DNA of 64,000 nucleotides, from assembly GCA_040954595.2 (NCBI GenBank), contig CM082597.2:5833244-5897243 (forward strand), given 5' to 3'. The DNA comes from Balanoglossus misakiensis. Lineage: Eukaryota > Animalia > Hemichordata. Under the pieces are notes generated by a model, which had not been told where the DNA came from, searched no databases, and was given only the letters and a program-made list of their open reading frames with translations. Positions 2,631-47,582 of this stretch are shown piece after piece. The translations under genes and the position numbers were made by a program. How positions within the stretch are numbered: position 1 is the stretch's first letter; each line of letters opens with the position of its first letter.

Positions 2631-5600
2631 ATGCCACACTAATAGAACATTCAGTTGGTACACTTCAGACTGCAGTGACGATAACATGGTTATTTGCGAG
2701 GATAAAAGTAAGTAGATGGGACATCAGCCTTTCCTGCATAGTTGACCACCTGTGTAGTTCTGTGGTGTGTATACATATGCCATGATACATGGAAAGTCGA
2801 CAAATGCATACACATGGTAACTACATTTATCCGCGTTGGAAGGGAGTCACATTGGAAATGCCCGTATGTGTAATGGACCACCTCTTGTTGCTTTTGGTAA
2901 ATGGATAATTGAAACAAAAGTTGTATTGTTCCGCCACAAGACGGTTAAATGATGGTCCTGCAGTGTATAGGAAGAGAATCGAAGGAACAATGACTTAAAC
3001 TATTGCAGCGCCTTAACTTCAGTGTGGACATGAACATTCCGCTAGGTTATATAGGTTGAAAACTAAGTGAAACTCTAGATAATAGTCAAGTTGATTGAAG
3101 ACCATATTCGTCTGCTTGCCTTTGCATGTGTCATCTTAGTGCCGTGTACATACAAGGGAGTCGAATTATAATATCCAAATGTTTCATGGACAATATTGGC
3201 ATGATTAGAGCGTTTGATCTCGCGATGACTTTTGTATGAGATTATTTTTACCGATTTCATTAGTATACACAGATAAAGGAATGCATGACATTGAAATTAT
3301 TTATGACTGACTTGACATGAAAGGAGGTTGTTGACAACGGAGTAAAGATGTCCCCTGAAAATGTTATATATTCATGTACTATTTTTAAGTCACGAATGCC
3401 TTCTCAATGTTAGAAATACAACACATAATATTTTGGCACCTCTCACATCATCTGCCTTTTACATTTGCAACATTCAGATGACTTACTTCTGCTGCGGGAG
3501 AGCTTGGTCAGGATAAGTGACGATGAATTCAGAACAGCAGATGTGGTAAGAAAGGTTCCAATCATTTGAGACTGATGTAATGCACTGTAGCGTAAAAAGC
3601 CACAAGTTAGCGAAATGCACTGAAGAGACAGAACATTTTTTGACAACTAATGCTACATTCTAAATTAATTTCACATAATGCTATACACCACATACTATGT
3701 AATTGTCTTTACACGTTTATTAAAGGTCCTTATAGGATATGACTATTTTGTGACAACTAAAGCTATACACTAAATTATTCCATATAAAGCTATAAAGCCA
3801 AGTACTAAATAATTGTCTATTCTTTGTACAGGGTATTAGTGTAATTGACAAGATAGACACTTTAACATCTGATCTGTCAAATAAAAGTGTCATATTTGAA
3901 GGAAGAATTCTATTTGCAAAAGGTATTGTGATCTTTTTTATTTAAGACCACAATGATCCGTGACGTCATTTTGTATTTCAACACCGTCCGCATTAAATAT
4001 CATCCAATGATGTAAATACGATAATGGTATCATACGCAGAAATGTAGAACCCTACAATCCCTAAGCGTATCGAATATGTGTCAACTATACTTCGTTTGTT
4101 TCAATGAATCATGCAGATAATTGGTGTCCATCAAATATGTTATTCTCAGAAAAACTAAGCATTGGGCAATTCCAAAAGCTGATGGATACGAGAAAAGAGA
4201 CATACTTATTATCAACCGGCGTATGATGCAATAGCCGATGCAGACCGACAGAGTGAGAAAGTTTTAAATGTCAATAATTATAAATTTCAGAAACACTGAA
4301 TGTTATGCAAAATGTGGTAGACAGAATGCAGTCCCTAATTGACGCCAATCCGAGCGACAGGCTGAAACCCGGGAAGGCAAATCACCTGACAAAGATAACA
4401 ACGAAAGTATTCCGCCAGTTATCAATGTTTATACTGAACGAGACTAATTATGGACATGGACCAATCATCGTGAACACTTCTTCTCTTGTGCTGCATCTGG
4501 AAAAGAACTTTACGCAGGACTTGTGCGACACCAGTATAATGATTGGAGATGGAAGTGGATTCAATATTCCACCAGCAGATATTATGTTTCCACAATTGTC
4601 GCAGGACACAGTCTTGGACGTGATGGTTCGTATACAACGTCTATAATCAGAAAAAAAATATTTCATTTTCAATCATACACTGCTTTATACTTCTATATTG
4701 ATATTTGTATACTATTGGTCGTTAGGACTTTTCCGCCAGTAAACTATAATGTGACGTCCCAGTGATCTTGCTATCATTAATGGAATGAATTGTAGGCTGA
4801 TATTTGTGTTGAGTCAATGCATCCGTTGCAATTGATTTTAAAAAAATTAGTCCATACTATATTTTAATGATGATCTTTGGTTTTACGTACAGTATATGTT
4901 GTTGTCATCTTGTGTCCTTATGCTCAAGAATAATTAAAGTAATTTTTTGCCTTTAGATTTTCCGTTTGGGTGTAAATCCCCACAGATTGGCAAATGACAC
5001 ATATGGCTTTACTACCGATATACTGACCTTGGAATTCAGAGATGAAGATGGTAATGAGATTAAAGGTTGGTTTTCATTAAGGCCAAACGTGGCATCCTAA
5101 CATTCTTAGGGAACTCACAACAATACTTGAAATGTTCAGGGGAAAGAAGTTGCCTCTCTGGAACGCCTTGTCTTAAGGGGTTATTCATTAGGCATGGAGC
5201 ATGTCCTGTGTCACCATTGTCGTAACGATGCACAATTTAAACTGGAAAAGGCGAATTCCTTCTTTAAAACAACTTTACCTAGAAACTAAGCAACATATTT
5301 GTATAAACATACTCGCTAGCGTTTTCATCTTGGAGGGCGTAACTAGTTTATTGACCAATCTGTGAATATACTTTGGAATCAGTTTGAGTTATAACATAAC
5401 ATTTTTATTTTCAGTACAAAATGCATCAGAGGATCTCGGTGTATGGCTTGGTAATTATCAGACACCTATAAATGAAAGCATCGTCAGGGGATTATACGTG
5501 GAAAGTGAAGGAGTCACTAACTATGCATTGACAGTAACGGTAATCTTCACATACTATATGAAGTTCACTGATCATTACATGTTTTCTGATCTAGTCTTTA

Positions 5601-7065
5601 ACATAACCATTTGATCAACGGGGCAAAACTCAAACATGAGTATTAATGGTATTGGTGTTATTTCAAACATAGTGTTATCTGTTACCTCACAAATTTCATT
5701 ATGTGAAGTTTATCATGCGTCGATTTATCATTATTTTCGTTGCAGGCGCTATCGGCCTACTCTGCATTTCAAATCACCATGGAAGCATCAGCGCCTGTCT
5801 TCGAGACTACTACAGCATACATGTCACTGGAAAGACTTGACGCCGTCGGTGGCTACAGTGATTTCCATTATGCAACTGACTTGGTATTTGCAGGGTGTAC
5901 AGCATCCATATTTCTACCAGAAGCAAAGATCACCAGGACGGGCTTGTATTACATATTCTTTGACCTTACCAGTGGTAAGATTGTGGTATTTACATAATTA
6001 ATACAACTATTGCACAATGATCGTTGATTGAAACACATAGTTGTGTTTTCTTTTCTTTTTTTGCTGTTTATGCTTCTTTTTAATTTCAAAAACGAACATG
6101 CATATGTAGAAAGTTATACTACGATCTTGCGGTTTTAATATAGCTTTCCCAATTTTCTAATTTTACTATCGAGCTTAGATTGGTCAATCTAAATATGCTT
6201 ACTGATGTTTATCTAAATATGCTTACTGATTGTAATACATTTACTTCTTGTCGATGCCCAATTGTGACTGCATGTTGCGATTTGATCAAGTGATATATTA
6301 AACGGGCGCTCAACCCGTTTAATCGGCCTCCATACAAAGGTGTACACAAAACACGTGGTATGCGTTCTGTATTTCATTTGCCTTTAGCAGTATAATACAA
6401 AAGTTTATGAATTTCATTTTCTGGGTGCACACTACCTTACAGACACTCCAGTTGGTTTTATATGGAATATGTTGATGTAACCGCAGTTCTGTATATGTTT
6501 TTTTCACTACAGCCCGTGGGGTTGACATCAAGGTTCTCACTACTCAACACAGATGTTCCTACTTTGATGAGACTAACTGGCAAAATGATGGTTGTAAGGT
6601 ATACAAATTAATTTCTTCTAAATTTTGCAAAAGTTGAAATGCTCCATGTACTTGCGATTGATGAAATTTAAGACAAGTGGCAATCAGTGTGATTTCAGTG
6701 GGTTCTGTGGATAAATATGCAACAAAAACTTAAAATGCAGGAAAAAGGTACTGCACCTTACAATTAATACTGACACATGGAAAATACCGTAAACGTACAA
6801 AATGTAGTGATTCACGTGAGGGCGCTTTTCCTTGTTTAAATTAACGCTGGGATGTGAACCAGGTGTTTGATCTTGTTTCACTTGCAAAGAAACGCCCAAT
6901 GCTTTGTCATCACGTTTTTTTCTGCTTGATATCTTGCAGGTGTCACCAAAATCCGACTTCAATTCTACCCTGTGTCTGTGTAATCACCTGACCGTTTTCA
7001 GTGCAATGGTGGAAGTTGTTGAATCTGATGGACGATTCCACGATGAGCGCAGGGTCGTCCATTAG
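2631..7065 (+). CDS. Lectin-GAIN/GPS paralog 1 (only exons 5-13 visible): end of CTLD2 + PKD1/REJ-type GAIN domain, no TM
   Basis: Frame-consistent exons: 2631-2707, 3478-3545, 3832-3922, 4291-4625, 4957-5065, 5415-5539, 5746-5974, 6513-6598, 6940-7065. GPS motif RCSYFDETNWQNDGCK|VSPKSDFNSTLCLCNHL-TVFSAM, then stop at FHDERRVVH*. Homology to paralog 2 starts at ~2452; upstream exons are not in the window, so it is either truncated or continues beyond the satellite. Confidence 0.8.
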
Positions 7066-7479
7066 ATCTCGAGAAGTGACAAAATAAGCTTATGGGAGAA
7101 GTTCCGAACTAATAATGTACCATTGACATAATATGATGTCACTTGCCATTGTAATAAACCATAATTTCACTTGTCATCAGGGTGGAGTTATATTCTGTAA
7201 CTTCAAAACAAATTGTATGTGTTGATCTTGGATTACTCTGGATTATTCTGGTTGATATTAAAGCGTACACTTAAAGTGCAGTATGTATGTATGGCGCCTT
7301 TTCCCATCGAATCAAATTACGCTTCATGTGATGATGCTCTGATGGATGGAAGGGAGGGAGGGATGGAGGGACTCCCTATAGGGAGGGAGGGAGGGAATGA
7401 GGGAGGAATGGAGGGAGTTGCTGTTGTTGTTGTTGTTGTTGCTGTTGTTGTAAAAATAGCTTTTTCTAGATGGGGTTCT

Positions 7480-8560
7480 TTACAAAACTTTTGAAAAGTT
7501 TGCATACTATACATAAAGGCAGACAGTCGATTTTTTGGAAAATGGATATTTGAGGAATAAACTATGCCGTATTTGGGTGGATTTTGCAGATACTTTCTCA
7601 CTATATGTGCCGTTTTGAATTCCTGGACATATTTATCTTCACCGACATCTCCCGCAGCGGAAGTTAGTCATCACATGAATATTGCAAATGTGAAATGTAG
7701 ATGACATGACAGGCGATAAAATCTTACAATTGGATTTTTAGAGTTGCAATTTTTTGAATAAGAAATGTTGCCATAAATAATTTAAAGCCACTCTTTCAGG
7801 ATCTACCTCAGAACCCTAACCGATGGGTTAACCTCTGGGAATCCGTATTGTAGCATTATTGTTGACGTGGACAATGCACTAAAGACAAGTTATTGAATAT
7901 ATATCACATGTACACTCAAAGGAAATGTATAAGTGCGGGACAATTTGCCGAATTGTCATTGATTGGGGTCAGATGCAAAATTTGTCAACCGTGGATTGCC
8001 TGAGAAGACGTAAATTGTTACAATGTTGTCGTGAAATCCCTTTGACGTTAACGATCATCGCCACATTCGTCGAAAGCATTTAAAAATGTTGCATTCCTCA
8101 CGGAGTGGGAGACGATCGATTTTGGGAATGTTGATATTGAGGGGGTGTGTATGTCGTATTTGGGTAAATTTTGCAGATACTTTTGTATACCAGATGTGCT
8201 GAATTCATACTCGCATATGTCTTCAGCAACACATCCCGCAGCAGAAGTAAGTCAATATCTGAATAATGTAAATGTTAAATGCAGATGACATGAGAGGCGG
8301 TAGAATATTACAAATTGTATTTTTAGAACTACAGAATTTGAGAATAAAAATGTGACCATAAATAAATTAAAGCCACTCTCTTAAGATCTAATCCAGGGGC
8401 CCTTACCGGAGGATTAACCTCTGGGAAACCGCATTGTAGCATTATCATTGGTGTGCTCAATGCATGAAAGGCAAGGCATTAAATATATATCACATGTACA
8501 CACAAGATAACTGTATATTTGCAGGACAATATGCCGAAATTCCATTAGTTGGGTGAAACA
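7480..8560. repeat. Duplicated upstream (putative promoter) module of the lectin-GAIN genes, including a decayed exon-1 copy
   Basis: 7480-7960 resembles 8110-8550, 22025-22450 and, in part, 21200-21390 (GCAGATA...CCCGCAGCGGAAGT...CCATAAATAA...TTAACCTCTGGGAATCCGTATTGTAGC). Segment ~7985-8070 (GCCTGAGAAG...GTCGTGAAATCCCTTTGACGTTAACGATCATCGCCACATTCGTC) matches exon 1 but lacks the ATGs and the donor site. Confidence 0.7.
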
Positions 8561-9193
8561 GTTGAGGAATTAAAATTGATATTTACACGTACGTATTTCC
8601 TTGATTTAAACAATAGACCAGGGAAACTTGTCATTTGATATTTGCAATACTGTTTTCAAATTTAATTTCCAACGAATTGTATTTGTTCAAACATGCACCC
8701 CTTTACATTTTTCATTGTGCCCTTCAGCAGGTAACGTGTGTACATGCACAAAGACTATCTTCTTGTTATCTCGAGGGTAGGGACAATTGACGCACTAACG
8801 TCCCAGTTGGTTGGCCCTAACAACCCCTAGGGTGTATCTGCTAACAAAACATGAAAGAGCACGACATAGCGTCTCCATTTATCCCATGCTCTCTGCGGTG
8901 GTTGCAATTCTTTACAAAACATAATAATTTGTCAAGTCCCCTGTGCGCTTTTAATGTCTTTCAGCAGTTGAAGTGTGTACATACACAAAGACTTTCTCCT
9001 TGTTATCTTGAGAAAGGTGTAGGGGCGGGGCAATTGACGCAGCAACGTTCCAGTTCCAAACATCCCGAAGGCATAGCGTCTCCATGGTGCCTTGCTCTCT
9101 CTACCAATAGTTACAATTCTTTGCAAAACACGCATAACTTATCAAGCTTTTAATATACAGGTTGATCGCAGATTAGCCGCACAACTCGCAACC

Positions 9194-12100
9194 ATGGCTC
9201 GTCTGAGAAGGTGTAAAATGTTGCGAGATTGTCGTGAAATACCCTTAAAGTTAACGCTCATCGCTACATTCGTCATTCTGTCGGTGACATTAGTGCAGCA
9301 AGCAGGTAAGACATTTTAATTCCTCAAAACCAAGCCTAGGTAAGAAATATCAGCAAAGCGGCAGATCTACACCGTCTAGATGGAAAGAAAGGCTGTCAAG
9401 CAGCGAAATCGAGATAATTTAGCTGCGCAAGGGGTTTGTCAAGCAGCAAAACCTAGATAGTCTAGCTGCAATTCCCGGGGTTTTTCCCGAAATTCCGTTG
9501 GATTTTAAAATGGCGATCAGGAGTATAAACACTCGCTAACTGTCAGTTTTTCCTGATATTAGGTGTTTAAAAGCAAAATTTCGGAATAAAATGTAGCGCG
9601 TTCTGGGACTAGTGAATTTAACAATAGTTGTGCCAAACGATTTTGTTAAACTCTCAATACTCTTTTGAAGATAGAAAAAAATCGGAGTACGGACAAGTCT
9701 AGCTATGCATGGCTGCAGGACCCTTGTGTCTTAATGCCGGCGATACCGCCGAGGAGTTTTTTTTATCTTCTACAAAAGTATTGAGAGTTTCACAAAATCG
9801 TTTGGCACAAGTATTTTCAAACGCATTAGTCCCTGAACGCGCTACATGTTATTCGAAAATGTTGCGTTTCATTCATTCATTCATTCATGTAAATATCGGG
9901 ATAAACTTACAGTTACAGGGCTGTGTACCTTACGGTGATGCCTTGGGTGCTCACCGGCCGTAAGACACAAGGGCCCTGCAGCCATGCATAGCTAGAGACG
10001 TGCCCGTGCTCCGAGTTTTTTTATCTTCTACAAAAGTATTGAGAGTTTCACAAAATCGTTTGGCACTACTATATGTAAATTCACTAGTCCCTGAACGCGC
10101 TACATGTTATTCCAACATGTTGCTTTTCATTCATTCATTCATTCATTCATTCATTCAAGTAAATATCGGGATAAACTTACAGTTACAGGGATGTGTATCC
10201 TACGGTGATGCCTTGGGGGGCTCGCCGGCCGTAAGACACAAGGGCCCTGAAGCCTTGCATAGCTAGACATGTCCGTACTCCGAGTTTTTTTATCTTCTAC
10301 AAAAGTATTGAGAGTTTCACAAAATCGTTTGGCACTACTATATGCAAATTCACTAGTCCCTGAACGCGCTACATGTTATTCCAACATGTTGCTTTTCATT
10401 CATTCATTCATTCATTCATTCATTCATTCATTCATTCATTCATTCATTCATTCATTCATTCATTCATTCAAGTAAATATCGGGATAAACTTATAGTTACA
10501 GGGATGTGTATCCTACGGTGATGCCTTGGGGGGCTCGCCGGCCGTAAGACACAAGGGCCCTGAAGCCTTGCATAGCTAGACGTGTCCGTACTCCGAGTTT
10601 TTTTATCTTCTACAAAAGTATTGAGAGTTTCACAAAATCGTTTGGCACTACTATATGTAAATTCACTAGTCCCTGAATGCGCTACATGTTATTCCAACAT
10701 GTTGCTTTTCATTCATTCATTCATTCATTCATTCATTCATTCATTCATTCATTCATTCATTCATTCATTCATTCATTCATTCATTCATTCATTCATTCAT
10801 TCATTCAAGTAAATATCGGGATAAACTTACAGTTACAGGGATGTGTACCTTACGGTGATACCTTGGGTGCTCACCGGCCGTAAGACACAAGGGCCCTGCA
10901 GCCATGCATAGCTAGAGACGTGTCCGTGCTCCGAGTTTTTTTTTCTATCTTCTTCAGTAGTATTGAGAGTTCAACAAAATCGTTTGGCACAACTATTTTC
11001 AAACGCATTAGTCCCTGAACGCGCTACATGTTATTCCAAAATGTTGCGTTTCATTCATTCATTCATTCATGTAAATATCGGGATAAACTTACAGTTACAG
11101 GGCTGTGTACCTTACGGTGATGCCTTGGGTGCTCACCGGCCGTAAGACACAAGGGCCCTGCAGCCATGCATAGCTAGAGACGTGTCCGTGCTCCGAGTTT
11201 TTTTATCTTCTACAAAAGTATTGAGAGTTTCACAAAATCGTTTGGCACTACTATATGCAAATTCACTAGTCCCTGAACGCGCTACATGTTATTCCAACAT
11301 GTTGCTTTTCATTCATTCATTCATTCATTCATTCATTCATTCATTCATTCATTCATTCATTCAAGTAAATATCGGGATAAACTTACAGTTACAGGGATGT
11401 GTATCCTACGGTGATGCCTTGGGGGGCTCGCCGGCCGTAAGACACAAGGGCCCTGAAGCCTTGCATAGCTAGACGTGTCCGTACTCCGAGTTTTTTTATC
11501 TTCTACAAAAGTATTGAGAGTTTCACAAAATCGTTTGGCACTACTATATGTAAATTCACTAGTCCCTGAATGCGCTACATGTTATTCCAACATGTTGCTT
11601 TTCATTCATTCATTCATTCATTCATTCATTCATTCATTCATTCATTCATTCATTCATTCATTCATTCATTCATTCATTCATTCATTCAAGTAAATATCGG
11701 GATAAACTTACAGTTACAGGGATGTGTACCTTACGGTGATACCTTGGGTGCTCACCTGCCGTAAGACACAAGGGCCCTGCAGCCATGCATAGCTAGAGAC
11801 GTGTCCGTGCTCCGAGTTTTTTTTTTCTATCTTCTTCAGTAGTATTGAGAGTTCAACAAAATCGTTTGGCACAACTATTTTCAAACGCATTAGTCCCTGA
11901 ACGCGCTACATGTTATTCCAAAATGTTGCGTTTCATTCATTCATTCATTCATGTAAATATCGGGATAAACTTACAGTTACAGGGCTGTGTACCTTACGGT
12001 GATGCCTTGGGTGCTCACCGGCCGTAAGACACAAGGGCCCTGCAGCCATGCATAGCTAGAGACGTGTCCGTGCTCCGAGTTTTTTTATCTTCTACAAAAG

Positions 12101-15100
12101 TATTGAGAGTTTCACAAAATCGTTTGGCACTACTATATGCAAATTCACTAGTCCCTGAACGCGCTACATGTTATTCCAACATGTTGCTTTTCATTCATTC
12201 ATTCATTCATTCATTCATTCATTCATTCATTCATTCATTCATTCATTCATTCATTCAAGTAAATATCGGGATAAACTTATAGTTACAGGGATGTGTATCC
12301 TACGGTGATGCCTTGGGGGGCTCGCCGGCCGTAAGACACAAGGGCCCTGAAGCCTTGCATAGCTAGACATGTCCGTACTCCGAGTTTTTTTATCTTCTAC
12401 AAAAGTATTGAGAGTTTCACAAAATCGTTTGGCACTACTATATGTAAATTCACTAGTCCCTGAATGCGCTACATGTTATTCCAACATGTTGCTTTTCATT
12501 CATTCATTCATTCATTCATTCATTCATTCATTCATTCATTCATTCAAGTAAATATCGGGATAAACTTACAGTTACAGGGATGTGTACCTTACGGTGATAC
12601 CTTGGGTGCTCACCGGCCGTAAGACACAAGGGCCCTGCAGCCATGCATAGCTAGAGACGTGTCCGTGCTCCGAGTTTTTTTTTCTATCTTCTTCAGTAGT
12701 ATTGAGAGTTCAACAAAATCGTTTGGCACAACTATTTTCAAACGCATTAGTCCCTGAACGCGCTACATGTTATTCCAAAATGTTGCGTTTCATTCATTCA
12801 TTCATTCATGTAAATATCGGGATAAAGTTACAGTTACAGGGCTGTGTACCTTACGGTGATGCCTTGGGTGCTCACCGGCCGTAAGACACAAGGGCCCTGC
12901 AGCCATGCATAGCTAGAGACGTGTCCGTGCTCCGAGTTTTTTTATCTTCTACAAAAGTATTGAGAGTTTCACAAAATCGTTTGGCACTACTATATGCAAA
13001 TTCACTAGTCCCTGAACGCGCTACATGTTATTCCAACATGTTGCTTTTCATTCATTCATTCATTCATTCATTCATTCATTCAAGTAAATATCGGGATAAA
13101 CTTACAGTTACAGGGATGTGTACCTTACGGTGATGCCTTGGGGGGCTCGCCGGCCGTAAGACACAAGGGCCCTGAAGCCATGCATAGCTAGACGTGTCCG
13201 TACTCCGAGTTTTTTTTATCTTCTACAAAAGTATTGAGAGTTTCACAAAATCGTTTGGCACAACTATTTTTAAATTCACTAGTCCCAGAACGCGCTTCAT
13301 GTTATTCCATAATGTTGCTTTTAAACACATAAATATCAGGAAAAACTTGCAGTTAGCGAGTGTTTGTACTCCTGATCGCCATTTTGAAATCCAACGCAGT
13401 TTCGGGAAAAATCCAGGGAATTGCAGCTATACTATCTAGGTTTTGCTGCTTGACAGCCTTTCTTTCCATCTAGACGGTGTAGATTCGCCGCTTTGCTGAT
13501 ATTTCTTACCTAGGCCTGAAAACAGAAGCACATGAATCTTATTATTTTGTGATTGTTTAAACTGACTGTCATAAGAATAACGATTTTATTTCCAGGTTGC
13601 GTCACCTACCACGTTTTCGGGTATATGGATCAGCCTTCTGCCTACAGTTTTTGTGAGCGATTAGGTCTCCGTCTTGTTAAAGATGACAGCGAAGAAAAAC
13701 ACGCAGCTATAGTAAACAGTTTAAAAGGACGAGGCTTTATTCCATACACTGAATTATGGATAGATGCTCGACTGACTGACAACGGAAGCGTAGTCACAAG
13801 AGACGGGGAAATTTTGACTCACAAGCCCAGGGGTACAGATTTTTCAGAAAATGATGGAGAGTGTCTCGCACTGGCGTGAGTTCAGCGTTTTCAAACTATA
13901 TTATAATATGCAAAACTGTGTGATTTTTTTTGCTCATAATAATACAGCTCAACTTGAAGCAATCATTCTGTGTCATGCGCAGAAGCTGACAATGGAAAAT
14001 CAGTAGGGACAGAGTTTATTGACAATTTAAAGACATGCAGATGTTACAATAGACAATATATTCGGATCACAATTATATTTCTTTTGTAATTGCGTACACA
14101 TGTCTCCTTTTGTGGAAAAATTCAATTCGGTAACTGTAAGATATGTCCAGATTTATCTCATCGTTTACCAAACTTTCACAACAAAATGTGTTACAACAAT
14201 CTAACTCTGATTTATTTAAGTTTCTGCCAATTTTAGATCATGTAGACTTTATTCTCCATTGTCTTTGGATCTTAGTCAACCGTTAAGGAGAAATTGCAGA
14301 AAACGTTTTGTAGTATACATTATAATATACCTCATGCTAATACTGTGTTGTGATTCGCCATAATCCGTCACGTGATAGGAAAATATAATCGACGATGGAT
14401 CCCTAGGGAAAATTTCAATCGGAAACTGTGAGATATGTCCATTTTACCGTTGAACAAAAACCTGTCTCTGCAAAAATGTGGTACAACAATCTAACAAATT
14501 TATCTCATGTTTCTGACAATTTAAGATCACGTGGATTGAATTCTTCATTGTTGTTTGATGGTTGATCGGCGTTAATGAGTGGAGATAACATATTATTACT
14601 TGACGTTTCAATTACCAGGAATGACGCATGGATAAATATTAATTGTAACACGAACGGCACCGTCGGCCCTCTATTGGAGGTTCTGTGTGAAAATGCGAGT
14701 AAGTTCTAGTTCAATTAATTCTTTTACACTTACTTCATACTTTTCCTTATGACTGATCGACCTATCTTTGTTGGTTCAAGTGGAAAGACACGTTTTTAAT
14801 TTATGTATTTTTATAACATTTGCCTCTTTATGTATATGAAACAATCACCTTCTTAAATTGATATAACATGTATTTGGTTTATTTACGAAATATATGTAGA
14901 TACTTATCGGTGTTTTTTCGCCATTTTTATTATTATACAGACGACAAATAAACGCTTAATTAGAGACACTAAACCATTATAGACATTTATTTTAAAGCCT
15001 CTATAGCTGCCAAATTTCACATTATTTCCGCAGTAAAATACTTCAAATATATTCCCTATCCTCTAAAATCCTCACCATTATGCCGTATTACCTGCAATTG

Positions 15101-18100: not shown

Positions 18101-20502
18101 AAAAAATATTTCATTTTCAATCATACACTGCTCTATACTTCTATATTGATATTTGTATACTATTGGTCGTTAGGACTTTTCCGCCAGTAAACTATAATAT
18201 GACGTCCCAGTGATCTTGCAATCATTAATGGAATGAATTGTAGGCTGATATTTGTGTTGAGTCAATGCATCCGTTGCAATTGATTTTTAAAAAATTAGCC
18301 CATACTATATTTTAATGATGATCTTTGGTTTTATGTACAGTATATGTTGTTGTCATCTTGTGTCCTTATGCTCAAGAATAATTAAAGTAATTTTTTGCCT
18401 TTAGATTTTCCGTTTGGGTGTAAATCCCCACAGATTGGCAAATGACACATATGGCTTTACTACCGATATACTGACCTTGGAATTCAGAGATGAAGATGGT
18501 AATGAGATTAAAGGTTGGTTTTCATTAAGGCCAAAAGTGGCATCCTAACATTCTTAGGGAACTCACAACAATACTTGAAATGTGCAGGGGAAAGAAGTTG
18601 CCTCTCTGGAACGCCTTGTCTTAAGGGGTTATTGATTAGGCATGGAGCATGTCCTGTGTCACCATTGTCGTAACGATGCACAATTTAAACTGGAAAAGGC
18701 GAATTCCTTCTTTAAAACAACTTTACCTAGAAACTAAGCAACATATTTGTATACAAATACTCGCTCATAATTTCATCTTGGAGGGCGTAACTAGATTAAT
18801 GACCAATCTGTGAATATACTTTTGAAATCAGTTTGAGTTATAACATAACATTTTTATTTTCAGTGAAAAATGCATCAGAGGATCTCGGTGTATGGCTTGG
18901 TAATTATCAGACACCTATAAATGAAAGCATCGTCAGGGGATTATACGTGGAAAGTGAAGGAGTCACTAACTATGCATTGACAGTAACGGTAATCTTCACA
19001 TACTATATGAAGTTCACTGATCATTACATGTTTTCTGATCTAGTCTTTAACATAACCATTTGATCAACAGGGCAAAACTCAAACATGAGTATTAATGGTA
19101 TTGGTGTTATTTCAAACATAGTGTTATCTGTTACCTCACAAATTTCATTATGTGAAGTTTATCATGCGTCGATTTCTCATTATTTTCGTTGCAGGCGCTA
19201 TCGGCCTACTCTGCATTTCAAATAATCCTGGAAGCATCAGCGCCTGTCTTCGAGACTACTACAGCATACATGTCACTGGAAAGACTTGACGCCGTCGGTG
19301 GCTACAGTGATTTCCATTATGTAACTGAGTTGGTATTTGCAGGGTGTACAGCATCCATATTTCTACCAGAAGCAAAGATCACCAGGACGGGCTTGTATTA
19401 CATATTCTTTGACCTTACCAGTGGTAAGATTGTGGTATTTACATAATTAATACGACTATTGCACAATGATCGTTGATTGCAACACATAGTTGTGTTTTCT
19501 TTTCTTTTCTTTTTTTTGCTGTTTATGCTTCTTTTTAATTTAAAAAACGAACATGCATATGTAGAAAGTTATACTACGATCTTGCGGTTTTAATATAGCT
19601 TTCCCAATTTTCTAATTTTACTATCGAGCTTAGATGGGTCCATCTAAATATGCTTACTTATGTTTATCTAAATATGCTTACTGATTGTTATACATTTACT
19701 TCTTGTCGATGCCCAATTGTGACTGTATGTTGCAATTTGATCAAGTGATATATTAAACGGGAGCTCAACCTGTTTAATCGGCCTCCATACAAAGGTGTAC
19801 ACAAAACACGTGGTATGCGTTCTGTATTTCTTTTGCCTTTAGCAGTATAATACAAAAAATTATGAATTTCATTTTCTGGGTGCACACAACCTTACAGACA
19901 CTCCAGTTGGTTTTATATGGAATATGTTGATGTAACCTCAGTTCTGTATATCTTTTTTTCACTACAGCCCGTGGGGTTGACATCACTGTTCTCACTACTC
20001 AACACAGATGTAGTTACTTTGACGAGACTAACTGGCAAAATGATGGTTGTAAGGTATACAAATTAATTTCTTCTAAATTTTGCACAAGTTGAAATGCTCC
20101 ATGTACTTGCGATTGATGAAATTTAAAGACAAGTGGCAATCAGTGTGATTTCAGTGGTTACTATGGATAAATTTGCAACAAAAACTTAAAATGCAGAACA
20201 AGGTACTGCATCTTACAATTAATACTGACACATGGAAAATACCGTAAACGTACAAAATGTACTGATTCACGTGGGGGCGCTTTTCCTTGTTTAAATTAAC
20301 GCTGGGATTTGAACCAGGTGTTTGATCTTGTTTCACTTGCAAAGAAACGCCCAATGCTTTGTCATCACGTTTTTTTCTGCTTGATATCTTGCAGGTGTCA
20401 CCAAAATCCGACTTCAATTCTACCCTGTGTCTGTGTAATCACCTGACTGTTTTCAGTGCAATGGTGGGAGTTGTTGAATCTGATGGACGATTCCACGTTT
20501 AG
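9194..20502 (+). CDS. Lectin-GAIN/GPS paralog 2: signal peptide + 2 C-type lectin-like domains + GAIN/GPS, ~653-661 aa, no TM
   Basis: 13 exons: 9194-9305, 13596-13875, 14619-14698, 15365-15641, 16188-16273, 17054-17121, 17279-17369, 17738-18072, 18405-18513, 18864-18988, 19195-19423, 19968-20053, 20395-20502. Total 1986 nt, phases consistent. Hydrophobic leader LTLIATFVILSVTLVQQA. CTLD motifs AYSFCERLGLRLV...LWIDA...C...W..INC...VLCE and AHKVCEKFGLRLL...IWIDA...C...W..ENC...VVCE. GPS CLCNHL-T, then stop. The start may be the second Met at 9218. Confidence 0.88.
9331..13518. mobile_element. Non-autonomous DNA transposon with ~400-bp imperfect TIRs, 5-bp TSD and internal satellite array, in intron 1 of paralog 2
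   Basis: Starts CAAGCCTAGGTAAGAAATATCAGCAAAGCGGC and ends GCCGCTTTGCTGATATTTCTTACCTAGGCCTG. AAAAC is duplicated at 9326-9330 and 13519-13523. The paralog-3 intron shows the empty site (CTCAAAACAGGAG at ~22680). Segment 9331-~9745 is the imperfect reverse complement of ~13145-13518. Confidence 0.9.
9752..13205 (+). repeat. Tandem array of 12 units of ~260-340 bp, each with a variable (TTCA)n tract
   Basis: Units start near 9752, 10013, 10281, 10594, 10932, 11195, 11487, 11813, 12076, 12381, 12671 and 12933. Length differences come from (TTCA)n. This produces the spurious HSFI-repeat ORFs. Confidence 0.95.
14992..15333. mobile_element. TTAA-flanked MITE (Kolobok-like); related pieces at ~34220-34570, ~53070-53288, ~55466-55660, ~6240-6335, ~19700-19790
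   Basis: TTAAAGCCTCTATAGCTGCCA...TGGCAGCTTTAGAGGATTTTAA termini. The core GAGGCTGATTAAATCGGTG...CAATCGGGCATCGATAAGGTG recurs elsewhere. Confidence 0.65.
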
Positions 20503-21511
20503 CACAGGGGCGACCTTTGGGTCTACATACATGTATGTGACAAGATAAGCTTTTCGGGCGAGTTCTAAACAGATGATGTAGCATTCAAAATGTGTTCGTG
20601 TTTTTTAGACTTTATGAAGCAAGAAATGTTCATATTGCAGTTTTGGAAAGAGTTTTTAGGTGATAATGAATCAAGTAAAAAGCATAGATGTATATTTAGC
20701 TAGAGGTGTCCGAAAGAGAAGCGTTTGGATGAAAATTTGATGTTTAAAAAAGAATTGCATTTTGTTAGGTTGCGTACGTCTATGATTGATTGTGTTTGTC
20801 TGTAGTCAGGCGGAGTAATACACTGTTTCATAATTGTACTGCGACACTTTTCGCACTCTTACATTGTTCTTGCCCAGTGCGCTTACGCTGGACAGAAACA
20901 CAAGGACCGATGGGTCTGAAATGAGCATTGACGGAGGTTTATAAAAATCATATAGTTCGATGTAATTTACACATGTCTTTGCAATGTGCCAGGATAGCAT
21001 ATATACATGTATACATTTATCAATGTTTCTGTTTTGTAATAACCAGTACTGTCACTTGCCATTGTAATAACCCGTTATTGTACTTGTCATTAATTGGCGG
21101 AGTTATAGTATTCTGTAATTGTGACATATCCCACAGCAGATGTAAATCATCAGTTGAATAATGAAAATGTGCTGATAACGTGAGAAGCGGTGGAACGTGA
21201 CAAATTGTCTGTCTAGAATTACACAGTTTGAGAATAAAAAGGGACCATAAATAAATTAAAAGCAACTCTCTCAATATCTAACCTCTGGGAATCTGTATTG
21301 TAGCATCATTGCCGTGTACAATGCATGGAAAGCAGGACATTGTATATCATATATAAGCCTACACTCAAGAGAGATGCATATTTACAAGACATATGCAGAA
21401 TTTCTATAAATTGAGTCAAACCAGCTACACATATTGTTATGCAAAACGGCCCACCCCAACATACATTCCACCATCTGCGTACCTGCATATGAACGCGCCT
21501 CCCCCCTTGTA

Positions 21512-21660
21512 CGTATGTATGTATGTATGTATGTATGTATGTATGTATGTATGTATGTATGTATGTATGTATGTATGTATGTATGTATGTATGTATGTAT
21601 GTATGTATGTATGTATGTATGTATGTATGTATGTATGATTAAATGAATGAATGAATGAAT
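21512..21660. repeat. (GTAT)n microsatellite followed by (GAAT)n
   Basis: Directly visible; source of the MYVC/HTYI ORFs. Confidence 0.97.
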
Positions 21661-22543
21661 GTAAAATTTGCATAGTAATTTGTAATAGCTGCGAAGTGAA
21701 TTTTGGTGAGGATCTAAATTCATTATTCTATACTTACAATGTAGGTAATGTGTTTACCTGACATACACAGGAATGAAAACAGAAAATGTATCCCTGATCT
21801 ATTGAACAGAAAACAAAAATAGTTTGTTTTTAAATCTCTCCATTGTCCATTCCTTGTCTAGATGAAAATGCTATTTTGGCCGACCTAAGTATAAAATCTT
21901 TAGTTTATATCAGACAAAGCAATTTGTTGGGTGGGTGGGTGGGTGGGTTGGGTGAGTGAGTGAGTGAGTGAGTGAGTGAATATTTCTTGAGTGAGTATGT
22001 CGTGATTAGATAGGTTATACAAAGCCTTTGAAAAATTGTGCATACTCTACATAGTGCCCGCCGATCGATTTTTTTGGAATGCGGATATAAGGGGGGGAAA
22101 AAACTATGCATTATGGGTATATTTTGCAGATATGTTTGTATCATATGTGCCGTAGACATATTTATCTTCACCGACATCGCCCGCAGCGGAAGTTAGTCAT
22201 CATCTGAATAATGCAAATGTGAAATGAAGATGACGTTAGAGGCGATAAAATCTTACAATTAGACTTCTAGAATTGCAATTTTTTGAATAAGAAATGTTGC
22301 CATAAATAAATTAAAGCCACTCTTTCAGGATTTACCTCAGAACCCTAACCGATGGGTTAACCTCTGGGAATCCGTATTGTAGCCTTATTATTGACGTGGA
22401 CAAAGCACTAAAGACAAGTTATTAAATATAGATTACATGTACACTCTTGGGTCATACGCATATTTTGTCACTTTGTTCATATATTAGATAATCGCAGATT
22501 AGTCGCAAAGCATTCAACTGTGGCTTGCCTGAGAAGCTGTAAA

Positions 22544-25500
22544 ATGTTAAAAGATTGTGGTAAAATACCTTCGACGTTGACTCTCGTCGCTACATTCGTG
22601 ATGTTGTCGGTGACATTGCTGCAGCAAGCAGGTAAGACACTAATTATGGATTTTTGCACGTTCAGAAAGTCTAAAGCTGCTCAAAACAGGAGCTCATAAG
22701 TCTTATCATCGTGTTATTGGAAAATGAATGATTGTAATAAGAATAACGATTTGATCTCCAGATTGCAACTTCTTGCGCGGGTGGTCGGATCACGCTACAG
22801 CTTACACGGTTTGTGAGCGATTGGGTCTTCGCCTTGTTAAAGTTGACAGTGAAAGAAAAAACGCAGCTATAGTAAACACTTTAGAGAAACGAGGCATCGC
22901 TGATTTATGGTACTGGATAGACGGACTGTTAATTGACGACGGAAGCGTAGTCACAAGAGAAGGGGAAATGTTGACCATCCAGTCGCAGGTTGAATTGAAA
23001 TGGGGAAATTGCGTCGCAATGAAGTGAGTTGAGAGTTTTGACAATATATTTAAATATGAAAAATAATGTCTTTGTGGTCATTTTAATATAGCTTAATCCA
23101 GTGCAGAGGCATGCAATCTGTAAAAATATATCAGTGGGGACAGAATTAATTTACATTTTAATGATATCCAGATGTTACAATCGGCAATGTTTCCAGAAAA
23201 ACATTATTGGCAATTGCACGCCCATATACCTCGAGTTTTATATGGGAAATTTCTATCTGCAACTTTGATATATGTCCAGTTTTCTATCAACGTTACTTTA
23301 GAACACCAAGCTTTGTCTGCAAAATGTGGTAAAACATTTAACCATATTTGTCTATTTTTTGCAAATTTTAGATCTAGTTGATCTAATTACCAATTATCTC
23401 CGGGTCTTAATACAATTAAAGGGAAAATGTAGAAAACGTTTCAATATAGTTTGTCAGATGTATGGGTTGACTTGCGTTAAGGGGTGAAACTTTAATATAC
23501 TTTCAAAACTTTTTAATTCACAGAACAGAGTGGGGCTATTTTAAGTGTTCGCGCGTCCATGGCGTTTTATGTGAAAATGCAAGTAAGTTACGGTTTAATA
23601 AAGATCTTTTAACCAAGTTCATGGTTGTTCCTAGCGAGTGATCTAATCTATCATGTTTTTTGGTATTCTATAACATTTTACTCACGTGATTCAGTATCTC
23701 ACGAGGTTATACTGGTATTATATGTGGTCGATTATCTGCTTAGGCCTATTTGCATATTTAATGACATTTTCTAATTTATGCTATATTTCCGAAATTACTG
23801 CACCGAATTTGATGAAATTTGCTACAGATATTGAATGTGGCCGACATGTGGTTGTGTTATGAGAAATTTAGCAATGAAATGTTAATTAATGGCTAATTTT
23901 CAGATTTAATGACTTTAATCAATCGGCCTCAAACGATCCAGAGATCATACAGCAAATCCGATGAATCTCTAGATATTGTTTTCACGTCTATTAAGCTGCA
24001 TTTAGTAATAACTTACAGCTCATTTGAATTTTATGAACCTGTTTTGTTTAGTGCTATGTTTCTGAAATAAATGTACCGAATTTGATGAAACATGCTAGAA
24101 ATGTTGATACGACAGGAATCTGACTATATTGTAAGACATTTCGCAGTGTCATGTTAATTAATGAATAATTTGCATATTTAACTAATTTGTGCAGTTAGCC
24201 CTTCGAATCCCGAGTTCCTGCACCAAATTTAATTGAAATTGTCAGCCAAACTGTTTCTATATCAATTATACTGTATTTAAAAATACTGTGCCTATTTCTA
24301 ATCAATGCAAGGCAAATTTGCATATTTTATGACTTGTTCTGATTAGTGCTCTGTTTCTGAAAATAATGCACTGAATGTGATGAAATGCTTAAATTATTAA
24401 TCTTCAAGTTTCCTTTAGCTATGGATAAGAGTCAATTCACGTCATTTTTTTTCTTTAAGTGGTCAAAATGTATTGGTTTATTTAGATAAATAATTTGAAA
24501 AAAAAATATGATAATTATCCCAAAAGTTGCAGCCTATATGCAATTGCACCAAAACAAAATATACTTTTTTCCGTATTCGAATTTGACGGGAAAGAAATGA
24601 CGTTTTTCCCCCAATATGCAGCATCTTTAGACTTTATTCCCACACGGGCGAGCATGATGTCTTCATACCAGCTATGTGAGAAGAGTGGGCTCCGTCTTCT
24701 GACTGACACCACTGAATGGAACATCGACCAGTATTGTGCGTCCATTTGTAAGGGATGGCACCCAAGATTTTGGATTGACGCCACCATCACGGCAGATGGC
24801 ACTGTGAAGACAAGCAGCGGTTTGGTATTGGAACACTCCCATTATGCCCCCGACCAGAATCTTGACGTCGGGTCGTGTATTTACGCAAGGTGGGTCGCTG
24901 TCTGTTCAAGCTACTTTCCTTAGTGCCACACAGAAGACATAGTTTTACATTTCTTTCATGACGTTACGTTAATTGTCATAGAGTTTCAACATAGGAGAAA
25001 TGATGGCAGTTGAATGATTTGAATAAGTGTGTATTGTTACGTTTTCTTATCCCAAAGGTAACTCTCTGCTGCTAAAAATCACTACTTTTGCACTATTTCT
25101 GGTATTTTGTCAAGTTTGAGTTCTATGTTTTGCCTTTTGGTAATTAACTTTACCTGCTATATCGTCTGAATCGCAAACCACAATGTGAGCATGATACTTT
25201 ACAGCTAACGCTGGCTGCAATATCATTCCAACATGCGTTTTACAGCATAGTAGACAGTGGATGTAGGAAATTTATCGGAACCATGCCCATACCAAATTTG
25301 ATTTTAAATATTCATAACGATTTTAGAACACTAAGCCAGGGTGTGGCAGCACGGTTAATGATTTTATTCATTAATGCAAACTTTGCAGGTTGGTCATGAG
25401 GCCATCCTATAGAGATCATTCTACACACGTATGATTATCAATATAGACACTGTGCAGTGACCATTGTAGACATTAACTTCAATAAGCGTTGTGAACAGTG

Positions 25501-28500
25501 AATCTTTTATTCAGGTGTTTCTCAGACAAATGTGAATGGTTAACTAGAGACTGTAACAGACCACTGGATTTAGTTTGCGAGGATAACGGTAAGTATTTTG
25601 AGACATCAGCGATTAATCTCGTTCTTAAATCTTCCCTTTCCTACACATTTGACCACCTGTGTAGTTCTGTGGTGTGTATACATTCAACATACGCCATGAT
25701 ACATGCAAAGTCGACAAATACATACACTTTAATTGTAAATATATATTTATCCGCGTGGAAGGGAGTCACATTGGAAATATGTATAATGGACGATTACCTG
25801 TTGTTTTCGGTAAATGGATAATTTGGCATTGACTGGCAAAGACGTCTCCTTAGAGAATGTGTAATATATTCCTGTTAGTGCCTTCGAAATTTTAGAAATT
25901 CAATTGATAATACTTTGCCACCCCTCACGTCATCTGAATTTCACATTTGCAACATTCAGATGATGACTTACTTCTGATGCGTGAGAGTTTGGTCAAGATA
26001 AGTGACGATGAATTCAGAACAGCAGATGTGGTAAGAAAGGTTCCAATCATTTGAGACTGATGTAATGCACTGTGTTGTAGAAAGCCAGCGAAATCCACAT
26101 AAGAGATAGAACATTTTTGAAAATGCTCCATACTAAACAATTCCACATAATGCTATTAACCACATACTATGACTATGTAATTGTATATTCTTTTGCCAGG
26201 GCATAAGCGTAATTGACAAGGTGGACACTTTAACCTCTGACCTTTCAAATAAAAGTGTCATATTTAAAGGAAGAATTCTTTTTGCTAAAGGTATTGTTAT
26301 ATTTTGTTGTTTTCACCAAAATGACTCTTTGACATCGGCATCCATCACAACACCGTCCGCATTCAATATCATCCAATGATGTATATGAGATAATTGTATC
26401 AGATGCAGAAAATTAGGGCTTTGCGATTATTAAGCGTATCGAAAATGCGTCAACTGCAGTTCGTTTGTTTCGACAAAACATGCAAATTATTGGTGATTGT
26501 ATTGCGTATTGTATTGGACATGTCAGACTATTGAATGATACACTGAATTAAAAGTAGAACGACAGGACTCCATTATCAGTCCATCATTTTTTTTTCCAAA
26601 TGGTTACAAGAAATGAAAGTCACTTAATATTTTTCGGGCATTGATGTAAAGCCGAGAAAGACAGTCAAACAGAGTGAGATAGTTTTAAATGCCAATGTTT
26701 GCATATTTCAGAAACACTGAATGTCATGCAAAAAGTGATGGACAGAATGCAATCCCTAATCGACACCAATCCGAGCCAGAGACTGAATCCCAGGCAGGCA
26801 AATCACCTGACAAAGATAACAACAAAAGTATTCCACCAGTTATCAATGTTTATACTGAACGAGACTGATTGTGGACATGAACCAATCATCCTGAAAACGT
26901 CTTCTCTTGTGCTGCATCTGGAAAAAAACTTTGCGCAGGAATTGTGCAACGTCACCATAATGATTGGAGATGGAAGTGGATTCAATATTCCACCAGCAGA
27001 TATTATGTTTCAACAATTGTCGTGGGACACAGTCTTGAGCAGAATGGTCCGTATACAAATTCGATGATAATAAGAAACAATATATAATGTTTGTTTATAT
27101 TCCTCTATTGTTGAACATGGATAAACATATAACTATCTGCCGCCAGTTAACTTTAATGTGACGTTCTGGTAAGATGTCATTTTTTATGGGATGAACTATA
27201 GGCTGTCATCTGTGTTGTGTCAATGCACCCATTGTCATTATATTCTACAAAATAAGATCATTTCTATGTGGCCTGGTGCTCGAGGAATAATTAAAGTAAG
27301 TTTTTTTTTTAGATTTCCCGTTTTGGTGGGAACCCCCACAGATTGGCAAATAGGACACATGGCTTCACTACCGATATACTGACCTTGGAATTCAGAGATG
27401 AAGATGGTAATGAGATTAAAGGTTGGTTTTCATTAAGGCCATCAGTGGTATCCTAACATTCGCATTGAACTCTCAATATTTTACCAGTTAACGTCGCACC
27501 ATTTAAACCGGAAATGGCGAATTCCTTTAACTAGAAACCCCGGCGACATACTTGTATAAACATACCATCTTGGAGGGCAGAAGTCGATTAATGACAAATT
27601 TGTGAATTTAGTTTTGGCATTATTTTAAAATTATCATGAAACATGTACCTTTTCAGTGAAAAATGCTTCCAAGGATCTTGGCGTATGGCTTGGTAATTAT
27701 CAGACACCTATAAATGAAAGCGTCGTCAGGGGATTATACGTGGAAAGTGAAGGAGTCACTCACTATGCATTGACAGTAACGGTAATGTTTACATACTCTA
27801 TGAAGTTTACTGATCATTGCATGTTTTCTGAACTCGTATTTAACATAACCATTTGATCATATATCATTATGGAATGATAAATAATTTGCATCATTGTTAC
27901 ATAGGTATTCCTGCCGCCCGAAATTGTTGTAGATCTTTGTAAACCTTTCAACGGGGCAAAACTCAAGATCTATACATGTCTCTCGCAGCAAGGGATATGC
28001 AACTTTCGGTTACAAACCTTCGGCTTTGATATCAATTTCCTCGTCATCAATTACAGGGGACATGGTCATAAATTTCGATTTTTCTATAGGTGTTTGATCT
28101 ATAATTTAAGACACTCTGAAAAGGGTATACACGTATAAGACATTGGTGCCATTTCAAACATAGTGTTATCATTTACCTCACAAATTCCATTATGTTAACT
28201 TCAAATGTTAATCTAAAATTCTCATCTTTTTACATTGTAGGCGCTATCGGCCTACTCTGCATTTCAAATCATCCTGGAAGCATCAGCGCCTGTCTTCGAG
28301 ACTACTACAGCATACATGTCACTGGAAAGACTTGACGCCGTCGGTGTCTACAATGGTTCCCATTATATAACTGAGTTGGTATTTGCAGGGTGTACAGCAT
28401 CCATATTTCTACCAGAAGCAAACATCACCAGGACGGGCTTGTATTACATAGCTTTTGACCTTACCAGTGGTAAATTGTTTTTGTTTTTTTTTGCTGTTTA

Positions 28501-29317
28501 TGGTACTGTCAAATTCAAAAATCAACATGTATAATAATATGTAATGCTACGATCTTGATATTTAATTAAAGCTCAACTCGTTGACATAAAAATCACTAAT
28601 TTACTATTTCTATATTGGATTACGCACATATTGGCGGTCATTTTAAATTTAAAATATTAGAAAATTGGGCCTTATGTCGAAATATTCCATCGTGACCCCT
28701 GTTTCACAACTTTAAAAGCCACTCCAGTTAATTTTAAATTAAATCGTTAAAATAAACCTTTTAAGTTTTCTTTTCTTTTTCACTACAGCCCGTGGGGTTG
28801 ACATCAAGGTTTTCACTACTCAACACAGATGTAGCTACTTTGATGAGATTAACTGGCAAAATGATGGTTGTAAGGTATAAACGCATTTCTTCAAATTTTG
28901 CAATAATTAATATGCTCCTTGTACTTCCAAGCGATGAAACTAAAGACATGTGACAATTAGTGCGATTTCAGGGGAAACTGTGGATAAATATGCAACAAAA
29001 CTAAAAATACAGAAGGTAATGCATGTTACGATTAATGCTGACACGTGGAAAATACTGCAAACGTAAAAAATGCACTGATGTAAGTGGGGACTCTTTTCCA
29101 TTATATATTACATCCCTGAGACGTAAACCAAGTGTTTGATCTTGTTTCACTTGCAAAAGAAACGCCCACTGCTGTGTCAATACGCATTTTTCTGCTCGAT
29201 TATTTGCAGGTGTCACCAAAATCCGACTTCAATTCTACTCTGTGTCTGTGTAATCACCTGACTGTTTTCAGTGCAATGGTGGGAGTTGTTGAATCTGATG
29301 GACGATTCCACATTTAG
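22544..29317 (+). CDS. Lectin-GAIN/GPS paralog 3: signal peptide + 2 CTLD + GAIN/GPS, ~634 aa, no TM
   Basis: 13 exons: 22544-22631, 22762-23023, 23524-23582, 24622-24889, 25515-25588, 25960-26030, 26200-26290, 26712-27046, 27313-27421, 27657-27781, 28241-28469, 28789-28874, 29210-29317. Total 1905 nt, same phases as paralog 2. Ends CLCNHLTVFSAMVGVVESDGRFHI*. Confidence 0.88.
23740..24400. repeat. Degenerate internally repetitive insertion in intron 3 of paralog 3
   Basis: TGCACCGAATTTGATGAAA-like and TTTGCATATTT motifs recur at ~23800, 24070, 24220 and 24370. The segment is absent from the equivalent intron of paralog 2. Confidence 0.5.
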
Positions 29318-32586: not shown

Positions 32587-32610
32587 CTGTAAGAGTGGTC
32601 GCACATTGTC

Positions 32611-32843
32611 TTAAAGGGAAGGGGTCGTCGCACCGCGAGGGTGTCCCCCTTGATGAGAATATGCCCTCCCATACCAGCGCAAACCCCACTGCAGTCGCCA
32701 CGACCTACTAGGATCTTCAGTTGCTGCCATGCCCAGTCTACGCTACAGTTGGCTGCTTCGTTCATTCTAAGAATGGTCTAATTTGTTTTGGATAAATTGT
32801 AATGTTTATAAACAAACGCGGCGTGACGACCCCTTCACTTTAA
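32611..32843. mobile_element. TTAA-flanked MITE; second copy at 42236-42479
   Basis: TTAAAGGGAAGGGGTCGTCG...GACGACCCCTTCACTTTAA termini; the copy at 42236-42479 is highly similar. Confidence 0.85.
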
Positions 32844-32992
32844 TGATTACAAAAAAATCAACATCAGTGACTCAGTATCCAGCGGCGTATACAACTTTAC
32901 ACGAATCGCCAGATCAATGGTTGTGACGCTATATGTAGCACCTGAATGTATAAACGGGATAGATTTTAAAGGAACCCGATATTGCAATCGCA

Positions 32993-33160
32993 ATGACACC
33001 CTTTTCATAAGTCTAGCGCCCCCATGCAGCCATCATGAATTTGAACTCAAAGCGAGGCTAGTTGGGAAATCCCCTTGATGTGATTGGTCAACGTTCCCCC
33101 ATTGGCCTCGCTTTGAGTTAAAATTCATGAGGGCGCTAGACTTATGAAAAGGGTGTATGA
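32993..33160. mobile_element. Small palindromic MITE
   Basis: ACACCCTTTTCATAAGTCTAGCGCCC.CATG ... CATGAGGGCGCTAGACTTATGAAAAGGGTGT, with inner inverted CAAAGCGAGGC/GCCTCGCTTTG. Confidence 0.7.

Positions 33161-47545: not shown

Positions 47546-47582
<37 letters not shown>

Follow-up and report, generated by a model that had tools for sequence, protein, structure and literature searches.

In a 64,000-nucleotide stretch of the genome of the acorn worm Balanoglossus misakiensis (assembly GCA_040954595.2, contig CM082597.2, positions 5,833,244 to 5,897,243 of the forward strand; the whole stretch is referred to as the window, and positions count from its first letter), we found three tandem genes, each kept under selection, that end shortly after the GPS autoproteolysis site of a GAIN domain and carry no membrane part behind it. 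We propose, with moderate confidence, that their products are secreted recognition proteins and belong to an acorn-worm family that probably originated when a PKD1L-like receptor's ectodomain turned into an independent gene. Both the DNA and the family give good support to the anchor-less architecture; the genes are known as DNA models, and secretion is predicted.

Comparison of the window with itself revealed three related blocks, at approximately 2.4–7.1, 13.5–20.8 and 22.5–29.8 kb, in animal DNA with about 37% G+C around the gene copies. We placed exons by hand through their GT–AG boundaries and translated them by script. Copies 2 and 3 each gave a model of 13 exons (9218–20502, 653 amino acids; 22544–29317, 634 amino acids) with a sole stop at the end, which bears out the original prediction that they consist of a leader, two C-type-lectin-like domains and a GAIN region. 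For copy 1, of which the same exons had been claimed from the end of the second lectin domain onwards, exons 5–13 could be placed (2631–7065, 414 amino acids). Its exons 1–4 were not found in the window, including the interval between a 238 bp tandem repeat (63–1468) and exon 5. The features are as follows.

2631–2707, 3478–3545, 3832–3922, 4291–4625, 4957–5065, 5415–5539, 5746–5974, 6513–6598, 6940–7065, + strand: copy 1 exons 5–13; end of lectin domain 2, GAIN, 24-residue tail
2631–2707, + strand: copy 1 exon 5; end of lectin domain 2
9218–9305, + strand: copy 2 exon 1; basic N-region, then hydrophobic leader (predicted signal peptide or signal anchor)
13596–13875, 14619–14698, 15365–15641, 16188–16273, + strand: copy 2 exons 2–5; two C-type-lectin-like domains
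17054–20053, + strand: copy 2 exons 6–12; GAIN subdomain A (helical), subdomain B, inserted beta-sandwich of ~110 residues (exons 10–12)
20395–20502, + strand: copy 2 exon 13; GPS end, HL↓T, 18-residue tail, TAG; candidate internal donor at 20464
22544–22631, 22762–23023, 23524–23582, 24622–24889, 25515–25588, + strand: copy 3 exons 1–5; leader, two lectin-like domains
25960–26030, 26200–26290, 26712–27046, 27313–27421, 27657–27781, 28241–28469, 28789–28874, 29210–29317, + strand: copy 3 exons 6–13; GAIN, HL↓T, 18-residue tail, TAG
29610–29766, also 20948–21118 and 7137–7200, + strand: shared post-stop block; no common open frame

All three copies contain the four GPS cysteines, the Trp and HL↓T, and end just past CLCNHL↓T. 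Beyond the scissile Leu, copies 1, 2 and 3 extend by 24, 18 and 18 residues, respectively. Both observations agree with the original prediction, as does what lies downstream in the genomic models. Only 2.0–2.2 kb separate the stops of copies 1 and 2 from the next leader. Behind copies 1, 2 and 3, hydrophobic frames led by a splice acceptor numbered 2 of 45, 4 of 57 and 14 of 375, respectively, and two of these are the leaders of the next copies. We found no hydrophobic, membrane-helix-like exon common to the three downstream regions and none open in all copies. Likewise, neither PLAT nor the 1–11 membrane helices of PKD1/REJ proteins nor the seven-transmembrane (7TM) part of adhesion GPCRs (G-protein-coupled receptors) was found after the GPS in the genomic models or in relatives. 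The shared post-stop block is likely to be the end of the 3′ untranslated region, and AATAAA occurs at 7153 in copy 1 and at 29778, directly behind the block, in copy 3. A frame at 21047 that resembles a second GPS followed by a hydrophobic stretch was considered and rejected, as a stop closes it in copies 1 and 3.

Similar gene models without a membrane part were found at other loci. A profile of exon 11 searched against 1.84 billion proteins returned five hits, and a profile of three hits searched against proteins of 624–2000 amino acids returned five hits from 7953 candidates, three of them new. All eight relatives (P0001–P0008) are RefSeq models of Ptychodera flava on six contigs (among them XP_070532992, XP_070558929, XP_070568692/3, XP_070548064 and XP_070547380), annotated as 'uncharacterized' or after an unrelated best match, and P0001–P0005 are 41–48% identical to the window GAIN. 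No relative above the thresholds came from other hemichordates, echinoderms or chordates, in searches that both reach only fairly close relatives and of which the second excluded proteins above 2000 amino acids. Word-index searches with exon 8 (31 candidates, 196–2000 amino acids) and exon 11 (68 candidates, 134–2000 amino acids) found no identical protein. The heads of the relatives differ: P0005 and P0007 have a leader, two lectin domains, four to six HYR repeats and a GAIN; P0003 has a leader, one lectin domain, a Ser/Thr stretch and a GAIN; P0008 has NHL repeats, two lectin domains and half a GAIN; and P0004 departs from the pattern at its last exon. The two-lectin relative P0005 forms a group with the window copies (95/93). 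We also observed that the end of P0008 is almost letter-for-letter the start of P0004, on the same P. flava contig; from their sequences, the two are probably one two-lectin GAIN gene that annotation split and fused to an NHL-repeat gene.

None of the eight relatives contains a receptor membrane part, and the lone hydrophobic stretch behind a GAIN is a second leader, in P0006. Because relatives at several loci lack a membrane part, the anchor-less state appears to be old and family-wide, spanning loci that differ at more than half of their residues. The end of the protein varies. The five relative loci that reach the site finish as QLT-stop, HLT-stop, HLK-stop (both isoforms), HLT plus five residues, and YLA plus 21 polar residues. 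Their tails are thus 1, 1, 1, 6 and 22 residues long, and three of the five carry QLT, HLK or YLA in place of H-L-T. Tail and catalytic triad therefore vary, and neither cleavage nor the tail seems to be conserved across the family. If their ends are true, the tail-less relatives would be natural strand-less GAINs. Looking for an architecture of two lectin domains, GAIN and stop in animal proteomes, as the original prediction had proposed, turned up two-lectin, anchor-less relatives among the P. flava models, with heads and tails that are not constant.

Domain searches are consistent with these assignments. Pfam searches of single exons left 14 of 19 without a match, and Lectin_C matched exon 2 weakly (E 0.0056 and 0.14). 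A profile built from six lectin domains of the relatives identified two domains in each complete copy (independent E-values in the range 5e-16 to 5e-25), and Lectin_C scored above its cut-off in P0005 and P0008. Against PDB sequences, exon 2 gave eight weak matches (E 0.09–0.87), four of them to lectin-domain proteins, and exon 11 gave none. The Ca2+/sugar motifs EPN, QPD and WND are absent from the window lectin models, and sugar binding is therefore not implied. Pfam GPS matched exon 13 of all three copies below its cut-off of 22.5 bits (19.7–20.2 bits, E 9e-4 to 1.2e-3) because intron 12 splits the motif; it scored above the cut-off in P0002, and the ADGRG6 GPS matched with E 1e-4. Pfam REJ was found neither in the window exons nor in the relatives, and lectin domain 2 joins the GAIN directly. 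Exons like the HYR exons of P0005 were not found in positions 1–30000 of the window.

By Atlas features, exon 8 falls in a GAIN-A cluster (0.93) and P0001 in GPS clusters, with GPS+PLAT (0.85) and REJ+GPS (0.75) as leads that both lie under 0.9. A structure model of P0001 (mean predicted local distance difference test (pLDDT) 58.6), which is 41–44% identical to the window GAIN, had latrophilin-3 as its best fold match (Z 10.1, root-mean-square deviation 5.1, 168 residues aligned). Further GAIN matches were ADGRG6, BAI3 and GPR56 (Z 8.2), so that GAINs made up four of the top five, and the fold comparison proposed earlier came out in favour of a GAIN. An earlier structure model (pLDDT 49) gave only generic beta-sandwich matches with Foldseek and latrophilin-3 first with VIA (Z 9.1). 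No polycystin chain was among the fold-search matches listed, which excludes nothing. Inside subdomain B, the predicted inserted beta-sandwich of approximately 110 residues was modelled at pLDDT 73–85 in most blocks and had fold matches resembling carbohydrate-binding modules; a beta-sandwich inserted in the GAIN is what we take to be a PKD1-type trait.

The leader is the only segment of the complete copies with a hydropathy near 2 (1.9–2.2 over 19 residues), and the next-best 19-residue window (1.4–1.6) is the GPS strand itself. Each model has 9–11 N-glycosylation sequons. As for other anchors, a glycosylphosphatidylinositol signal is unlikely because the last ten residues are not hydrophobic.

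To compare the copies, we aligned 633 codons of copies 2 and 3 and obtained a ratio of nonsynonymous to synonymous rates (dN/dS) of 0.62 (bootstrap 0.49–0.80), with 0.51 (0.33–0.88) in the GAIN, 0.65 in the lectin part and 0.26 in the leader. Exons 6–13 are 89–98% identical, as against 59–81% with many gaps for introns. All five exon length differences are multiples of three (chance 0.004), and in 2000 neutral simulations the two frames never both remained open; those of the GAIN alone did so in 34. The coding sequences thus indicate that the three copies are under purifying selection over the whole gene. The original prediction had taken the shared stop of copies 2 and 3 as an argument against pseudogene truncation; that these are open, selected genes holds, but the shared stop itself is weak evidence because it is inherited (exon 13 is 98% identical).

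The lectin part evolves differently from the GAIN. Between copies 2 and 3, identity is 48% in the lectin part and 88% in the GAIN, and dS is 0.72 versus 0.12, which suggests that conversion or shuffling homogenizes the GAIN half of the copies. Copies 1 and 2 are approximately 96% identical, introns included. However, their exon 5 matches at only 55 of 77 bases, compared with 450 of 468 in the flanking introns (p 2e-10). It contains 19.5 nonsynonymous versus 0.5 synonymous differences (pN 0.35, pS 0.04; exon 5 against the intron rate, p 7e-11). This excess of amino-acid change points to diversifying selection on the lectin head, judging from the sequences.

Several observations concern the DNA around the copies. 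The first exon of copy 2 lies 4.3 kb upstream of the next, across a satellite-filled intron that holds approximately 3.6 kb of a 260–310 bp tandem unit with embedded (TTCA)n (9750–13320), with the arms of an inverted repeat of about 420 bp on either side (9331–9754 versus 13136–13518). This array is a mobile or satellite insertion. The repeat at 63–1468, upstream of copy 1, comprises about six copies that are 89% alike. A broken third copy of the leader exon (7986–8071) lies 1.2 kb ahead of the copy 2 leader.

In the mechanism that we favour, the leader would export a glycoprotein whose variable heads bind a changing target, such as a microbial, gamete or matrix surface, probably by a route other than the classical Ca2+/sugar site. 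The conserved part would be the GAIN, inserted beta-sandwich included: a body on which the heads are presented or to which a host partner binds, and so a structural or binding module. The first six to eight tail residues (TVFSAM) would fill the groove as the last beta-strand, complete the sheet and stay bound whether cut or uncut; cleavage would then likely be vestigial. Solved GAIN structures keep the strand bound after the cut, and the domain is predicted to unfold when the strand is lost (PMC3321182). Of the role assigned by the original prediction, a secreted or anchored recognition protein, membrane-less and probably secreted lectin-like GAIN genes stand, and recognition of sugars does not follow.

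Some of the evidence weighs against this proposal. The window genes are models from DNA rather than transcripts, and the relatives are predicted models. P0004 and P0008 are incomplete (two of eight), two further relatives begin inside the GAIN, and P0006 is a fusion in which two tandem copies are joined by read-through. The T-stop and K-stop ends of relatives could reflect read-through of a phase-2 GTAA donor; GT is absent from the corresponding position of the window genes, and this counts against a conserved intron but is not decisive. Moreover, all three copies contain a donor-like ATG↓GTGGGA seven codons past the cleavage site (7009, 20464 and 29279), which scores 6.5 (3.8 in copy 1), within the range of the genes' own donors (3.2–10.3). 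The P0001 structure model is poor over the GAIN-B core and the GPS, with pLDDT under 50. The dN/dS values are moderately below 1, with three sub-region intervals that include 1, and the nonsynonymous versus synonymous contrast of exon 5 alone is borderline (p 0.014–0.09).

The internal donor bears on the reading that the real gene continues to a membrane anchor, the stop-containing version being a mistaken model or a single splice variant. The donor is usable, and that of copy 1 shares its frame with an acceptor at 9161, ahead of the copy 2 leader; P0006 is a read-through model of this kind, and soluble forms of adhesion GPCRs made by intron retention are common (PMC11039983). The 36 bases behind the donor are conserved at 35 positions, which is not decisive because the start of the true intron 6 is conserved likewise. 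We nevertheless regard this reading as improbable: the next leader is only 2.0–2.2 kb away, two of the acceptor-led hydrophobic frames are themselves leaders, the shared block is closed by stops in copies 1 and 3, the sole in-frame acceptor of copy 3 is pyrimidine-poor, and a receptor membrane part is missing not only from the eight relatives but from the search of proteins of 624–2000 amino acids. Alternatively, an uncleaved leader could serve as a signal anchor, giving type II membrane proteins with lectin and GAIN on the cell surface. Its hydropathy behind a basic N-region, its conservation (dN/dS 0.26) and an alternative in-frame ATG eight codons upstream in copy 2 (9194; not kept in copy 3), which adds basic residues, would fit. 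The hydrophobic core, however, is only about 15 residues long and ends in QQA-G/D, resembling a cleavable signal, and P0003 and P0006 start with short signal-like leaders, which makes an anchor rather unlikely. Decay of young truncated duplicates is the least probable of the alternatives. In its favour are the possible 5′ truncation and the shifted stop of copy 1, the broken leader near 8015, dN/dS values of 0.5–0.65 and the fragmentary look of several relative models, but there is no nonsense or frameshift change at a dS of 0.7 in the lectin part, splice sites are intact and the family reaches a depth of approximately 45% identity.

Two further readings concern the cleavage site itself. The original prediction had envisaged a peptide-delivery device, in which the GAIN cuts itself and frees the 18–24-residue tail as a soluble agonist. 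HL↓T and the hydrophobic, strand-like TVFSAM are intact in the three window copies, and the tail is identical at 50–53 of 54 bases among them. This idea found no support in the relatives, in which the tail ranges from 1 to 22 residues and H-L-T is mostly lost. Because tail and catalytic residues vary in the family, cleaved strands stay bound (PMC3321182) and untethered GAINs such as soluble ADGRE2 constructs cleave poorly (PMC12488864), and with little to pull against in the absence of an anchor, we consider peptide delivery very unlikely. The ectodomains might instead act in trans, docking on the tethered-agonist strand of a separately encoded receptor as a swappable lectin head or to silence it. 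This would apply above all to the tail-less relatives with their empty groove. Free-standing secreted GAIN genes of acorn worms, some ending at the cleavage site, would then clip onto the agonist strands of separate receptors and form split adhesion receptors with exchangeable, fast-evolving lectin heads. Three of five relative loci end one residue past the scissile Leu, like a ready-made N-terminal fragment; re-association and exchange of latrophilin fragments have been reported (PMC12300799), and transcripts for the C-terminal fragment only are predicted for human adhesion GPCRs (PMC11039983). Yet the window copies retain their own strand, no partner gene lies in the window and strand loss is expected to destabilize the GAIN (PMC3321182). 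We therefore view this as a speculative possibility, if the strongest of the alternatives, and prefer secreted recognition proteins in which the GAIN is a body for the heads.

The rest of the window contains other genes. A gene for immunoglobulin (Ig) domains on the minus strand (30500–39150) converges on copy 3; it begins in a signal-like manner near 39148 and has several Ig-like exons, including a V-set domain at 32192–32704 (Pfam E 1e-8). On the plus strand, 43800–48450 holds a multi-exon coiled-coil or armadillo-like gene, for which Pfam on one exon frame gave no match; it is possibly HSF2BP/MEILB2-like. Between 51700 and 56080, the minus strand carries G+C-rich exons with internally repeated Pro/Tyr/Thr-rich units, which are presumably like ciliary microtubule inner proteins. 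Elements of about 350 bp that resemble miniature inverted-repeat transposable elements, with long terminal inverted repeats, lie at 31590–31880, 37320–37680, 45940–46310, 49700–50060, 56730–56960 and 61960–62190.

If true, a multi-locus GAIN family without a membrane part, some members of which end at the cleavage site, would imply that a GAIN can function without tethered agonism or cleavage. It would provide natural proteins for two questions, what becomes of a GAIN after strand loss and how ectodomains act in trans. The fast-evolving heads would point to an arms race, in immunity, gametes or symbionts, in a little-studied deuterostome. No description of a lectin–GAIN–stop family was found in the literature, with supplementary domain tables and most subscription journals outside the scope; a hemichordate cell atlas mentions C-type lectins, in the passages covered, only as immune markers (PMC13554239). 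The anchor-less lectin–GAIN proteins are thus likely to be an undescribed family of free receptor ectodomains, as the original prediction had left to be checked.

Among known systems, PKD1L3 and zebrafish Pkd1l2b likewise have an N-terminal C-type lectin domain and a GPS and no REJ (PMC1934368, PMC5318412), but they run on into PLAT and 11 membrane helices (PMC5318412), whereas the window genes stop. Derivation from a REJ/PKD1L module with loss of REJ, as first proposed, is therefore probable as to the PKD1L-like design and not shown as to the loss of REJ, which such proteins already lack. Sea urchin SpREJ1, SpREJ2 and SpREJ10 are deuterostome PKD1-family proteins with a reduced membrane part, like the window genes (PMC1934368). 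SpREJ10 has a full cDNA and no predicted membrane helix, but contains REJ and neither GPS nor lectin domain; SpREJ1 and SpREJ2 have REJ and one or two helices, and none of the three is a lectin–GAIN–stop protein (PMC1934368). The lectin domains of SpREJ1–3 are reported to be under positive selection, which the diversification of the exon 5 head resembles (PMC1934368).

GAIN fold and GPS are also common to the window genes and adhesion GPCR ectodomains (latrophilin-3, BAI3, ADGRG6 and GPR56). The GAIN has been described as always directly preceding a membrane helix, with its last strand needed for the fold (PMC3321182); in the window gene models no such helix follows, and the stop comes 18–24 residues past the site. 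By the lack of a membrane part, the window proteins fall outside both the adhesion GPCRs and the PKD1/REJ proteins, and outside the REJ group also by the lack of REJ. Microbial MAIN domains are GAIN-like and autoproteolytic and do not signal via a membrane helix bundle, but are tethered at their C termini (10.64898/2026.05.12.724683). About half of the human adhesion GPCR genes are predicted to yield soluble N termini through premature stops (PMC11039983). Those are side products of 7TM genes, whereas the window appears to contain whole genes without a membrane part, and these have an extra inserted domain. In their mode of action, the window proteins would resemble the soluble ectodomain that shedding or splicing yields from an adhesion GPCR or polycystin (PMC11039983, PMC13197933, PMC4810088).

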